Shown in pieces: positions 1,136-8,254 of a DNA stretch of 64,000 nt. Source of the DNA: Octopus sinensis (taxonomy: Eukaryota); contig NC_043002.1 in NCBI RefSeq assembly GCF_006345805.1, positions 104,656,001 to 104,720,000 on the forward strand. Direction: 5' to 3'. The notes below the pieces were generated by a model that did not search any database, was not told the DNA's origin, and saw only the letters and a list, made by a program, of their open reading frames with translations. How positions within the stretch are numbered: position 1 is the stretch's first letter; each line of letters opens with the position of its first letter. The position numbers and the translations under genes were made by a program.

Positions 1136-1722
1136 GTATATATACATATCTGCAGGAACGCACACATATCTGCAATTGTGCGTGTGTTTGTGTGTGCGTA
1201 TGTATGTTTGCGCATATGTTTCTGTCTGTATGAATATAATCTTCGATCGAATGCACCACATCATCCTCCTCCGCTGCTGCTGCTGCTCTCTACGAACCAA
1301 CATCTGTTCATTAGAAGCAGCTGTACTCGAACATAAATTAACTTCCTCCATGTCTGTCAGTATATTTGTATATGTAAGGTCTAAACACGTGCCTATACAT
1401 ATTTACATCCATTCTTTAAAACTGTATACATTCGTCTCCAATACAGCTTTTTCCGATATCCCCTATTCAGTTTCATCTCCATCCGTTTTTTGCAGAAGTG
1501 ACTTTGTCCGACCATGGCCTCCACATAGACAAATCTTCTCCCAATGATTTTACTCCTTTTGCCCTCAGTTCTACTATGCCAGTTAATACCCTCTTATCAC
1601 TGTTCGCGTCCCCGATAAAGGTCACAACCTGAAAGGGAATGTTCTACGTTTTACCGAATACAAATGTGTTCTATTTTACGTTGTTTTCTGTAACGTGTAG
1701 AGTTAGCTATGATTGAGATATT

Positions 1723-2097
1723 TGGCATTCCTTCGGACGACGGGGGTTCCAGGTGATCCTGTCAATAGAACAGCCTTCTCGTGAAATTAGCGTGCAAGTG
1801 GCTGAGCACTCCACAGACACGTGTACCCTTAACATAATTCTCGGGGAGATTTAGCGTGACACGGAGTGTGACAAGGCTGGCCCTTTGAAATACAGATACA
1901 ACAGAAATAGTAAGAAAGAGTGAGAGAAAGTTGTGGTGAAAGAATACAGCAGGCTTCGCCAACACCCACTGCCGGTGCCTTGTGGAGCTTTAGATATTTT
2001 CGCTCAATAAATATTTACAACGCCCTGTCTGGGAATCGAAACTCCGATCCTACGACCGCGAGTCCGCTGCCCTAACCACTGGGTCATTGCGACTCCA
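1723..2097 (-). mobile_element. tRNA-derived SINE (octopus OR-like family B)
   Basis: Minus strand begins TGGAGTCGCAATGACCCAGTGGTTAGGGCAGCGGACTCGCGG...GTTTCGATTCC (A and B boxes); collinear with the copy at 51828-52209. Confidence 0.85.
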
Positions 2098-2159
2098 TGA
2101 TTCAAATAATTATACCCGTGTTTCCACTGGTGACACAATTTGGCTAAAGCTTGAGCATG

Positions 2160-2378
2160 CGTACTGGTTTAGCAGATCCGTTAGCATTTGGTGAAAATAA
2201 ACCTTGATTTATTAAATGACGTCCCTTTAGGCCCTGGGCCGAAATTAAGCGGAGGTCAACTTTGTCTTTGATCATTTTTTAGTCGGAAAATAAAGTACCA
2301 TTGAAGTTCTGACGTATATTGTATCGACTGTACTGTCCTTCGATATTTGCTGTTGTGTGTCTCGTTTAGAAATCAATA
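2160..2378 (+). mobile_element. Degenerate SINE, family A
   Basis: Decayed match to head (GCAGATCCGTTAGCA), central domain (GAGGTCAACTTTGTCTTTGATC...AAAGTACCA) and tail (TTTAGAAATCAAT). Confidence 0.55.
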
Positions 2379-3235
2379 CTAAAACGATGGCATTACGGAC
2401 ATTTTCCACGACAAATATCGAATTTCGTATTATCTTGTGAAATAACATAATTAGGTTATTCTATTTCAGGAACGAGGGAAAGAGAGAGAGAGAGGAGAGG
2501 GAGAGACAGACAGACAGGCAGAGAGAGAGAGAGTGAGAGATTGAAAGAGATCGCGAGACTGACAGACAGAAGGCTAGACAGACAGACTGAGAGACAGGCA
2601 CACAGACTGGCGGAGGGCCTGGCAGACAGCGAAATAAAGTGAGACTGAACAGTTTGGTTATTCTTTCAGTTGTAGAAGCTGTTATTCTGCATTATTCTCG
2701 GCAGCATTAAAATATTTCGAGAGAGGAAGAATGCCGTACATTGGAGAGTAGAGTGTGTGAGAAGCGACAATGAGTTTTGTATCAACTTATTTTGTACTTT
2801 TAGTTGTCCTGTTTTGTTTTGTTCTTGAGGAGCCTCAGCTCAAAGTTAGTACAGTATAGACAATCGCAGCTGAAACGGGTCACCGAATTTGACCAACCTG
2901 TTCTTCTTCGGACAATTTTTTCTAGCTTGTTCTAAGTCTAATGGGATTAAATATATCGCTACAATTTCGGGTAAGAAAGCAAATGTTTATAATCTTAGGC
3001 ATTATGTTGTTTTATTTTATTACGTTTAACCCAAGGTCGAATGAAATGGAGTAGACACATGGCTAATGGATTTCCAACTGTGACAATACTGACGTTATTG
3101 TTTTCCATTTGCTTACACATGAAAGTGTGTATGTACACGCACACACGCAAACGCGCAATTCCTAAAATCGTTCCAACATTGGATAAATTGTTTGTGAAAA
3201 TATTCCTAGTCCTCTACACTCTATGTCCAAATACT

Positions 3236-3650
3236 TATTTCTTTACTACTCTCAAGGGGCTAAACACAGAGGACAAACAAGGACAGACAAACGAATTAAG
3301 TCGATTCCATCGACCCCAGTGCGTAACTGGTACTTAAATTATCGAGACCCCGAAAGGATGAGAGGCAAAGTCGAACTCGGCGGAATTTGAACTTAGAACG
3401 TAGCGGCAGACGAAATATCTATTTATTTACTACCCACAAGGGGCTAAACACAGAGAGGACAAACAAGGATAGACAAACGGATTAAGCCGATTACATCGAC
3501 CACAGTGCATAACTGGTACTTAATTTATCGACCCTGAAAGGATGAAAGGCAAAGTCGGCCTCGGCGGAATTTGAACTCAGAACATAGCGGCAGACGAAAT
3601 GCCGCAAAGCATTTCGCCCGGCGTGCTAACTATTCTGCCAGCTCACCGCC
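3236..3650 (-). mobile_element. SINE family A, partial tandem dimer with TSD
   Basis: One full copy (GGCGGTGAGCTGGCAGAA...GAGTTCAAATTCCGCCGAGG...TTTAGCCCCTTGTGGGTAGTAAA) plus a 5'-truncated copy; flanked by TCTATGTC(C/A)AAATAC at 3220-3234 and 3653-3667. Confidence 0.9.
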
Positions 3651-3689
3651 CTTCTATGTCAAAATACCGTTAACATTAAAAATGCCTTT

Positions 3690-4356
3690 TTATCACTTTT
3701 GGATTGATAAATAGCGTACCAGTCCGAGGAAATATCAGTCCTCCACTGCTCTAGGGACCAGTTCTGTAGGTTTTATCCACTCTAAACGCTTTGCAACGTT
3801 TGTTTTTGAAAATAGTGGTTTCCTGATTGCTGCCCTTCCATGAAATCCGGCTTTGTGCAGCTCCCGGCGAAGAGTTTTTGTAGAAACTGGGTTCTCGAGG
3901 TGGCCATTAAGCTCTGCAGTAATGTTGGGAGCTGTACTTTTGTGATCCTTTCTAGCAATTCACGTAAGAGTCCGACGGTCCTTATCTGAATGTTTTGGTT
4001 TTCTTCCAGAGTTTGTTTCGACGAAGAGGTTTTTTCCCCTTTCTCAAAGGCTGTAATTATTTTTGAGGCAGTACTTCTTGATAGATTTCGGCTGTTTTCG
4101 TTACGCTAGCGCATGCCATTCGAGCACCAACAATCTCACCTCTTTGAAAGTCCGATAGATCTCTCATTTTAATGAATTTTAATAACCTTTTTCTGATGAT
4201 ATCTGAAAAGAAACGGCAACTTTAGCAAAACATATTAAACAAAATTAATAATAAATAAAAACACATAAAAATAAGCAAGCGTTTAACAGTTTTATAGATA
4301 TTTCAATATTATGATGGAATGATGCTAGGTGTTCCCATTATTTTGTCCAACCACTG
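3690..4356 (-). mobile_element. Tc1-like DNA transposon relic (5' TIR plus N-terminal transposase pseudogene)
   Basis: From ATG at 4167 the minus strand reads, across frameshifts, MRDLSDFQRGEIVGARMA...GRKPKHSDKDRR...ELNGHLENPVSTKTLRRELHKAGFHGRAAIRKPLFSKTNVAKRLEW...WSLEQW; terminus CAGTGGTTGGACAAAATAATGGGAACACC abuts TA at 4357. Confidence 0.9.
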
Positions 4357-5072: not shown

Positions 5073-6822
5073 TGCGTGTGCTTGTGTGTGTGTAAATATA
5101 AAATAAATGAAAACAAGGAACAAAATACAATAGAAGTATTTAATACTATTAAAAAATCAATTCGCCTTTAACTTCGCTTTCATTATTTCGTTAAATACAA
5201 TTAATTGCAAATACAGATATTGCGATCCAATAGAAGGGATTACGATACAGCTGTGGCTTCTGAGAAAAGGTATGTGTTTATCGCTATTACAAATTATTCC
5301 CCCTTTACATCTGTTCTTCAAATGTCTAACGTAGCTTCCATATTTGCTTAATAGATTATCTATTAACGTTTTTTTGATAAAGTGCTTTCTAATCTGATCG
5401 CCGCATCCTCTTAATGCTTGACAACAAATGATGGCAATTTAATTCGCATTCCATTTGTTAAATTACTATACAGCGTATAATTTATTTACTAGAATTAATT
5501 GTTTATCAAAACAACTTGAGTGACTTTAATCTAATGAAAAATAATCTTCAACTGTATTATCTTGATGGATATAAATTCGAGATATCGTTGAGATTCTCGG
5601 ATTGCTCTCTTTTGCTGAATCGCTAAACAATGAGTTTTGACGATTCTAACAGCTAAGATGAACAATGGGAGGGAGAGAAAAAGAGAGGCAATAAAAGATA
5701 GAAAGGAAGAAAGAGAGAGAGGGGGAGAACAATATCTGAATAACCAATAAGAAAAGTGGAAATGTGTTTGTAATTACTGGCCAATTGGCGACTTTGTGGC
5801 TACTTTTTGTATTTGAATATTCTATGGATATGAAGTCCTGTTTGGTGGGTCAGATGGTTGAGCAACCTTCTATATCCATTATTTGGCTCTTGTCTTTCTA
5901 CTCTAAATCTCATAGGGCCTCCTACACGATTTGCATGATATACAAATGGCAGAGAACACGATATTGCCTCTGTATTTGGCGTCTACTCGTGTCGCAGTTC
6001 AAAGCCAGCAGTTTTGAGAGAAGGTCACAACTCGATTACTTTGACCCTAGTACTTGTTTTTACTCCATGTAAAATGTAGTGTTTAACCGCGATTGATTTT
6101 GAACGCGAAATTCGGAAAAAAATCCGGTTAGGGATTTTGCCCGACGCGCGAACGATTCTGCCACCTGACGCCTTAAGAAATCTCTATATAACTTACAATC
6201 GTACCCGTTATGTTTTATATCCAATGCGATCGGGATCGATTGTGATTGCCACCCCTCCAGTAACTACAATAAAAGCACATATGTCATACACCATCCCCAC
6301 CTCCACACACAGCTGGCAGTTTTTGAGGAAATATTTATCGTTGAACACTTTAAACACTCTCGCTTTTCAAGATAGCATGGCTTTTATTTTGCTTTCTCAG
6401 AAAGTACCAATAGACCTGTTAATAGATTGTATACTCAGATCAAACTTTGTCAGAAGCTGCAAATATTTAACGCTTGCCCATTTTAATTTCGAATCTTAAT
6501 GGTTGGCATCAAAGATGCGATTCAAATATTACTTGGTGATTGGAGGCACATTTATTGACCGTTTGATCACATTGCATCCCTCGATTAACATAAATCCCAG
6601 TGACGGAATCTGACCAAATTTTATCGTAAATATATCTGTTCTTCTGTCAATATAACCGATCACTAAGGCTAAGATAATTTCACAGGATGGTAGCAACCTT
6701 TTAAAGTCTAAAATAAATTGGAACGTGTAATTCAGACTTCTTTTAGCGACCGCAGAAGGATGGAGGTTAGAATCAGTTTGGACGAAATTTGAACAATGAA
6801 CATGTGAAGTGTGAACATATGA

Positions 6823-6901
6823 AAGAGCGCGGGCTACAAGATTCCGAGTTCATTTCCAGGCAGTGACCTGAATAATAGTAATAATAATAGTAATCATAAC
6901 A

Positions 6902-6937
<36 letters not shown>

Positions 6938-7147
6938 GTAATAATAATAATAATAATAATAACATCGAAAAATTACCTTAGGAATAAAAAAAAAAGATCG
7001 AAATTTCCCCAAAACACCTGATGGAGGCTGGAGGGTATATCAGCTGAAACGTTGTTAAAACAAAAAAGATGAGGACAAATATCCGTCAAATGTAAATAAT
7101 GCAAATAATGTAAATAATGTACATAATACCTCATCTCTTAAATATAG
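6823..7147 (+). mobile_element. Solo pLTR of the Penelope family at 18179-20897
   Basis: 6960-7147 is reverse-complement homologous to 18192-18375; includes an (AAT)n tract and a degenerate hammerhead ACAC-CTGATGG-A-GGCTG...CAGCT-GAAA-CGTT-GT (7014-7056). Confidence 0.85.
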
Positions 7148-8217
7148 TAATATGAAATGTTCATTAAAATAATACTAACCGAAATCGAAATGTTACGAAA
7201 CAACCAGTGTGTTGGGTGATTTGGTACAATATACAAGACTTGTGCTAGTTCAATATGAATGTGAAAAAAGATACGTGTACATGGGTGTACACGCATGCAC
7301 GCAGACACACACCCATGTACAGAGAGAGAGAGAGAGAGATAGAGAGAGAGAAAGAGAGAGAGATAGAAAGAGAGAGAGAGAGAAATCAATATCGAAAGTG
7401 AGAGATGTGCCTCTTTTCTTTCTTTTCACATGTTTTACACAATTCCTCACCTTCCTCACAAAACCGATATTTTCTTCACCACCCTCTCCTACACCTCTTC
7501 ATCCTCTCTCTTTACTCTCTCTCTCTCTCTCTATCTCTCTCTGTCTTTCAATCTCATTCATTCCCCTATCTCTTCTCTCGCTTTTGTCTCCTATAGTTTC
7601 GAATCACATCACAGATCTCTTCCTCCTGCCGCTGCCTATTACTTACCGTCCCCCCACCCCAGTTTCCCATACCCCTTTTATATATTCCGCTATTTCGTTC
7701 CTCGCACTGTCTCGCCCTCTCACACTACCCCTCTTTTACATATCCCGCTCTGTCCACAACTATAAACTATATATAAATCAACCGTCTCTCTACCCACCAT
7801 TTCCCTACTTGCTCTCTCTCTCCATCTCTCTTCCTCTGTTCCCCTCTCTCTCTCTCAGCAGCCTCAATCTTTATTTAATTCTACGTTTTCAAATATTCGG
7901 ACCAACCCCTCTCCTGTCCTCTCTCTTTCAATCTAGTTCACGTCCTCTCTGTTAACTCTCTATGCCTACCCCATTATATATTCATCGTTTCTCACCCCGT
8001 TCTCTCCAGCTCTCCTTCTCATACATCGAAATACACAGTTATATATATAAATATCCTATCATTTACTATATATATATATATATATATATCAGTATATATA
8101 TATATATATAACCCCCTCCTCTTAATTTTATGAAACATAAAGTAAATGTCTCACCCACCCTCATACTTTACTCCCTATTGATCTTGCTCTTCTGAACTAT
8201 TCCTCCCTCTCTGTCTC

Positions 8218-8254
<37 letters not shown>

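Follow-up and report, generated by a model that had tools for sequence, protein, structure and literature searches.

In this study we describe a retrotransposon family of Octopus sinensis whose pLTR opens with a tRNA-derived block. Most copies that extend as far as the block have their 5' edge set by it. Judging from its promoter boxes and from where copies begin, it is probably the Pol III promoter of a high-copy element of the Penelope/Poseidon type, setting the start of the RNA 13 nt before the A box. Three decayed copies of this one Penelope family lie in the window, by which we mean the whole analysed stretch of 64,000 nt.

Pol III promoters are a mark of non-coding SINEs, while autonomous retrotransposons are generally considered to depend on Pol II or on read-through from host genes. 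A coding element with a captured tRNA promoter would blur the line between SINEs and autonomous elements, and the family shows how the end of a PLE could yield SINE-like repeats, since its tens of thousands of short copies resemble tRNA SINEs and would receive that annotation. Its sharp 5' edge would reveal, from genomic DNA, the start of a PLE RNA, a position established for very few PLEs. Within this one family it also opens to direct test which type of promoter a PLE uses, how uncapped RNA is translated and what the minimal hammerhead does. Ohshima and Okada reportedly described, in 1994, three octopus families of tRNA-derived SINEs. In the literature that we surveyed, judged mostly by title or abstract, we found no PLE described as having a tRNA head or a Pol III promoter; the solo pLTR may be listed as a SINE in Repbase, in Dfam or by Ohshima and Okada (1994). 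The Penelope type itself is known, and a tRNA-derived block built into the pLTR is, as far as this literature goes, new for Penelope elements.

Copies in the window and layout of the family

Sequence comparison delimits copy 1 as a solo pLTR at 6823-7147 on the plus strand. It begins with a decayed tRNA-derived head (6823..6870) that has a mutated B box (6846-6857) and has lost the A box; a CATATG remnant at about 6816 may mark its start. Repeat analysis places an (AAT)n linker at 6871..6962, and a minimal type I hammerhead follows at 7013..7058, at a position inside the family's reading frame, with its core mutated (A9 to G), 2 nt lost from stem I and the predicted cut after 7053. The 3' part of the pLTR (7059..7147) contains 9-nt repeats and a PLE tail, the longer of the two 3' end classes. 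Copy 2, delimited in the same way, lies on the minus strand (18177-20914) and is almost full-length. Its 3' pLTR (18177..18404) comprises a microsatellite, a mutated hammerhead (18277-18321, with GAAG in place of GAAA) and the tail, and its head remnant (18413..18442) keeps an intact A box (18419-18429), the anticodon arm and the B box being deleted. The broken Penelope ORF of this copy (18466..20796, stop 18468-18466) covers an N-terminal region, the RT and the GIY-YIG endonuclease (EN) and matches RVT_1 at E 2.6e-6 and 27.7 bits, under the cut-off of 29.6; a truncated 5' pLTR (20797-20898) ends in a short fold-back that reaches 20914. Copy 3, again found by sequence comparison (22638-23038, plus strand), consists of the 3' end of the GIY-YIG endonuclease (22638..22940, stop 22938-22940) and a decayed palindrome with the tRNA-derived head (22964..23038; A box 22977-22987, B box 23012-23022), and no hammerhead follows its head. 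The three copies are 76-88% similar over their overlapping parts. A copy of a different common SINE-like repeat adjoins the 5' end of copy 3; copies of that repeat occupy 17760-17890 (minus strand), 22570-22640, 3229-3600, 14751-14790, 24485-24519 and 53454-53493. Directly after copy 3 lie decayed coding fragments (23150-24400, plus strand) that look LINE-like by eye, and a tandem repeat with a period of 392 nt (2.4 copies, 94% matches) is found at 39942-40882.

The motifs named in the preliminary description, namely the A boxes, the B-box-like elements (23012-23022 and 6846-6857) and the hammerhead-like motifs (7014-7056, and 18277-18321 on the minus strand), are all present where it had placed them, and its remark that no copy in the window is intact is borne out by the mutations in all three. 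It had put the A box right after the GIY-YIG stop; the order is right, the distance is not, as the A box begins 36 nt past the stop codon. The pLTR layout that it had pieced together from three mutated copies matches that of intact copies elsewhere. In 28 of 30 EN-anchored loci, four of which are near-identical duplicates, the endonuclease is succeeded by the head, and in 26 of 30 head-anchored loci a hammerhead comes after the head. The head is thus a fixed part of the family's pLTR and not a chance insertion, and a free SINE with the same head, from which it might have been captured, was found neither among the 30 head-anchored loci nor in the genome sample described below. Rfam failed to recognize the two elements on which the preliminary description was built: among 150 of 361 matches listed for the window there was no tRNA or hammerhead, only microsatellite-driven matches of miRNA type, and a well-preserved copy (L044) had neither match. 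The heads in the window received no score on a tRNA profile, and ARAGORN at a loose threshold returned noise.

We assign the family to the EN+ Penelope/Poseidon-type elements from its domains, motifs and layout. A single ORF encodes RT and, C-terminally, a GIY-YIG endonuclease with a CCHH motif (CxC within the GIY-YIG core plus two His), and related proteins carry PF00078 and PF26215. The Neptune-type CX2-5CxxC finger between RT and EN, as defined in PMC8557442, is absent here and present in a control family. Partial-tandem pLTRs, inverted 5'-truncated arms and an optional tail of 30-40 nt complete the picture. The order of the pLTR is ORF stop, 23 nt, a near-palindrome, the tRNA-derived block, (AAT)n, ATG, an in-frame hammerhead and the two-ended tail; AAT-type repeats dominate the linker in 89 copies, and copies are 92-95% identical to the family majority. 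All of 20 loci checked, out of 60 protein matches in this genome, belonged to the same family, so that no sister family was seen among them.

The hammerhead is part of the coding sequence. In L163 a natural frame of 391 codons opens at a Met that precedes the hammerhead and continues across the ribozyme, and in three relatives (P0006, P0019 and P0030, about 49-63% identical) the N-terminal peptide TPDDG...KRCV/KRRV matches the hammerhead core in frame. Because these relatives keep the matching peptide, the in-frame hammerhead is old, and ribozyme and protein share sequence across distant hosts. Identity to relatives over the C-terminal part is 52-68%; we found no solved structure for P0006.

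Among described elements, PAc of Anolis carolinensis (PMC11167929) is similar in its single ORF with RT and C-terminal GIY-YIG, in its pLTRs, in a hammerhead that overlaps the ORF start, in copy ends that do not lie at the ribozyme cut, and in two RT start sites that produce an optional tail of 30-40 nt. Unlike PAc as described there, the octopus pLTR opens with an A/B-box block and a microsatellite, with 5' ends piled up at this place, and its hammerhead core lies entirely downstream of the ATG.

The tRNA-derived head and the 5' edge of copies

By alignment, the head is tRNA-derived. Compared with the genome's own tRNA genes (a set taken from 30 of 46 matches and covering six amino acids) it scores 59.5, while shuffled sequences score 32.4 +/- 3.8 and none of 300 reaches 59.5; within this partial set the top isotypes are Arg-TCT (59.5) and Ala-TGC (56.5). 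On the tRNA profile it scores 17.1 bits, and again 0 of 300 shuffles score as high. The cloverleaf arms are all broken (5/7, 3/4, 3/4 and 3/5 pairs), and minimum free energy (MFE) folding does not single out the head (z +1.25). Nonetheless the boxes were kept: in the family majority both the A and the B box are intact, as the preliminary description had supposed, match the consensus and stand 34 nt apart. In a type 2 (tRNA-type) Pol III promoter the boxes are 30-45 nt apart and transcription starts about 10-20 nt upstream of the A box.

The family is abundant. In a grid of 120 evenly spaced 10-kb stretches over the nine largest contigs of the 2.72-Gb genome, 20 stretches contained it, with about 21 insertions, of which 3 held at least 100 nt of ORF; extrapolation gives about 48,000 insertions. 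Exact 20-mers occur 896 times just upstream of the head, 4,938 times inside it and 7,780 times before the hammerhead (controls 0), which after calibration by exact-match rates of 40/62, 29/92 and 40/120 corresponds to about 1,400, 15,700 and 23,300 arms. As the grid and the 20-mer estimates differ about twofold, we state the total as 20,000-50,000. Across the head start the counts drop 5.5-fold (raw) or about 11-fold (calibrated), and an exact 24-mer of the head start itself occurs 439 times (control 0).

This step reflects copy 5' ends, our DNA proxy for the RNA start, that pile up 13 nt ahead of the A box, at the palindrome. No part of the element precedes the palindrome in 22 of 30 pattern loci and in 12 of 14 head-bearing grid insertions. 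Among 23 copies from loci picked independently of the head start, 9 have their first base no more than 3 nt away from it, 10 start 4-9 nt inside and 4 are linked to EN. Some ORF-bearing copies (L141, L148 and L132) likewise begin at the palindrome; among the loci listed, L123 and L130 have the endonuclease upstream and are true partial tandems. The likely reason why most head-bearing copies start 13 nt upstream of the A box is that Pol III initiates the element's RNA at this point, so that the step would mark the RNA 5' end. cDNAs that reach this end would fold back, or pair with one another, via the small palindrome and so generate head-to-head insertions.

The same palindrome raises the question of whether the step could be a joining artefact, in which longer cDNAs pair or fold back on themselves at this spot and the head plays no part as a promoter. 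Palindromic junctions are indeed common (centres AC in 27 and GT in 13), microhomology jumps are frequent in the family, and the hairpin at the step, the most stable local one and the strongest in 230 nt (-5.4 to -7.1 kcal/mol), could be a hotspot of joining. However, a hairpin that stalled the RT would leave ends at the hairpin's 3' foot (about +10), whereas most ends include the whole palindrome, and many copies start at the palindrome opposite plain flank or a hammerhead fragment instead of a mirror arm. Moreover, an 8-nt palindrome just past the ribozyme cut stops only 13 of 248 arms, while of the arms extending as far as the head start most go no further. We therefore consider an artefact very unlikely.

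A minor class of copies (L002-L060 and the grid) starts at +6 to +9, at or just past the equivalent of tRNA +1; microhomology trimming or tRNA-like processing could lie behind it. As the main source of 5' ends, RNase P-like trimming at tRNA +1 is not supported, since all 43 of 43 palindromic junctions keep the 2-nt centre upstream of +1.

Candidate polymerases, terminators and transcripts

A head-initiated RNA could also be made by Pol II, if an internal promoter coincided in part with what would then be a mere vestige of a tRNA. This would explain the 5' step equally well and would solve the problem of translation, and other PLEs offer parallels. The promoter of Drosophila virilis Penelope lies within the pLTR, has no TATA box, is linked to an intron and, in partial tandems, drives the ORF downstream of it (PMC2377424), a layout like that proposed for the octopus element; the promoter of the Chlamys-3 PLE is intron-linked and H3K4me3-marked (PMC8557442). 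By inference, intron linkage in both points to Pol II. Unlike D. virilis Penelope, whose upstream copy is described as variably truncated, the octopus family has a fixed 5' edge and a candidate promoter of tRNA type, and no intron was found in it: precise intron loss was seen in 0 of 202 copies and no GT..AG joint among the RNA-seq read matches listed. A Pol II promoter would also leave unaccounted for the perfect A and B boxes, kept at canonical spacing although the stems have decayed, the start 13 nt before the A box and the lack of T4 runs in the majority ORF. We regard Pol II as an unlikely alternative.

A type 2 Pol III unit has no T4+ terminator inside its transcribed stretch. The majority ORF contains no T4 run in 2,361 nt, and no G4 run either. 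Twenty decayed copies hold 10 T4 runs against 68.6 expected from composition (O/E 0.15), a count over copies of one family that are not independent of each other, while 78 PLE loci from metagenome contigs gave an O/E of 1.72, with 2 of 47 long ones as low as the family. Statistically the absence is weak, with P 0.12-0.25 under Markov models and P 0.15 or 0.039 in codon shuffles on a segment of 429 codons. T4 depletion is also not specific to the family with the tRNA head, a point in favour of Pol II: decayed copies of a headless Neptune-like family, our control from the same genome, are T4-poor as well (12 runs in 18.0 kb, O/E about 0.34). The 3' region of this control is T4-rich in 15 of 17 segments (12 loci), compared with 9 of 38 decayed pLTRs of the tRNA-head family. 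The Neptune-like PLE family at L341-L352 has no A/B boxes, and a third, younger PLE family (G000:C29:2287375 and similar loci), 58-60% identical to the Neptune-like one, has open frames of up to 1,044 aa.

Returning to Pol III, RNA made from the head could run through the T4-free pLTR and ORF. It is possible, and we propose it tentatively, that the family is an autonomous protein-coding retrotransposon whose entire 2.7-kb RNA is made by Pol III from a captured tRNA promoter, the ORF being kept free of TTTT. Pol III RNA, being uncapped, serves poorly as mRNA; the protein might come from some copies that Pol II reads through.

In three RNA-seq runs (organism B), 6,102-8,254 reads from 11.5-12.9 million records fell on a solo copy. 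They were equally distributed over both strands, 82-84% of them ran into unrelated flanks, a single locus accounted for 342 reads, and neither starts nor ends piled up on the solo copy. A second read comparison gave a similar picture. This pattern looks like passive read-through, and it neither supports nor refutes a Pol III transcript. Sequencing runs labelled as five organisms contain the stretch, with no RNA run among those listed. Logan contigs of organisms C, D and E have the endonuclease, head and hammerhead parts, and no piece among those listed bridges endonuclease and head by 31 letters on both sides.

Solo copies, the hammerhead and related elements

Solos make up most of the family (18 of 21 grid insertions), and the preliminary description had proposed that they could be Pol III-transcribed, self-cleaving, SINE-like RNAs mobilised by the RT of the PLE. 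Mobilisation by PLE machinery is supported by two 3' ends that lie 35-40 nt apart and by inverted arms. In 149 units that are not joined to an ORF start, 74 3' ends fall at reference positions 135-159 and 62 at 175-186, which corresponds to the two-site tail of PAc (PMC11167929). The remainder of the proposal, self-cleaving solos that lead a life of their own, is not supported. Solos contain both sides of the predicted cut (reference position 92), and the cut itself had to be rejected as a copy end, since 1 of 149 3' ends lies near it and 1 of 83 truncated 5' ends exactly at it; the latter set was obtained after dropping the anchor arms of L001-L030 and merging duplicates by flank. A mild excess of truncated arms (13 of 83) begins 0-6 nt past the cut, and many of these are internal deletions. 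As copy ends avoid the cut site, cleavage does not define copies.

The hammerhead of the family, as distinct from the copies in the window, is of the minimal type I, with a conserved core, stems I and II and a palindromic stem III without a loop, so that a monomer cannot form the core; MFE folding does not single out the monomer (z -0.77). The full core is kept in 57 of 216 distinct copies. The minimal hammerheads of metazoan PLEs share the CUGANGA core, an extra nucleotide before G10.1, a stem I of 5 bp, the missing loop of stem III, palindromic 15.2-16.2, a fold that only dimers reach, and the fact that truncated copies mostly contain just one such motif (Cervera and de la Pena 2014, PMC4209133); the sections of that survey consulted mention no tRNA head, and the octopus motif is a predicted ribozyme.

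If solos were masters of a separate lineage that borrows PLE enzymes, their excess over ORF-bearing insertions would follow naturally, and each solo does carry a candidate promoter, a hammerhead, with a full core in part of the copies, and the RT start sites. The alpha repeats of Schistosoma, SM-alpha and Sj-alpha, likewise join a Pol III-type promoter and a hammerhead in one SINE-like repeat (PMC6765202). However, a comparison of 96 solo with 59 ORF-linked units at six common variant sites shows no difference (Fisher p 0.13-0.83), and three nested haplotypes are shared by the two groups, so that no solo-specific subfamily exists at these sites. The avoidance of the cut site and the loop-less stem III of the monomer speak against such masters too, and PAc requires ORF RNA downstream of its priming sites, not cleavage (PMC11167929). 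A separate lineage of solo masters is therefore very unlikely. Two classes considered for the solos were rejected on the same observations: a separate non-autonomous lineage of tRNA-derived SINEs, as variants are common to solos and ORF-linked copies and the head is built into a coding element, and a non-LTR retrozyme or SM-alpha type, as copies are dispersed or inverted and no ribozyme-cut unit occurs in non-coding tandems. SM-alpha is described as non-coding, in tandem repeats, with a canonical hammerhead that cleaves (PMC6765202); unlike it, the octopus block resides in an autonomous protein-coding element, with copies probably made from uncleaved RNA. The resemblance to tRNA-derived SINEs is in the A/B-box head, the decayed stems, the simple repeat and tens of thousands of short copies that start at the head; unlike theirs, the body is a PLE pLTR, and insertions leave PLE tails and inversions.

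In the simplest reading, solos come from the same masters as ORF-linked copies and are primed at the first pLTR/ORF junction of a head-initiated RNA. In vitro, the RT of PAc starts internally on uncleaved RNA and needs the ORF RNA downstream (PMC11167929). By analogy, the octopus RT would prime at two internal sites of an uncleaved RNA; priming at the first pLTR/ORF junction would give a solo pLTR, and priming at the last an ORF-bearing copy. Short RNAs from the 3' pLTR of a master may be a further source of solos.

A second case of a tRNA-like block might exist outside octopus. A first metagenome scan found nothing. A screen of 25 metagenome PLE loci with an endonuclease end and at least 250 nt downstream found the A/B-box pattern in one (0.1 expected): L355, a contig from another sample with an intact tandem PLE (unit 1500-4291, 2,791 nt, 901-codon frame) whose protein is 42% identical to the relative P0007. 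Its block, within 1500-1760, lies between the ORF stop and an in-frame hammerhead, with an AAT-rich stretch after it. On the tRNA profile the block reaches 5.1 bits, a score matched by 1 of 300 shuffles; 35 other 3' regions gave no score at all, and among 12 control regions the highest value was -2.7. Allowing for 36 tests, the tRNA-like nature of the block is only suggestive. The contig has just two T4 runs, both within 350 nt downstream of the block, and Rfam found no tRNA or hammerhead match on it. It is possible that L355 represents an independent promoter capture, and tRNA promoters may thus have been captured more than once among Penelope elements. As to distribution among hosts, a further relative, P0009, is 52-61% identical to the octopus family and clusters with proteins of the barnacle Amphibalanus amphitrite; from this clustering, horizontal transfer between marine animals is possible.
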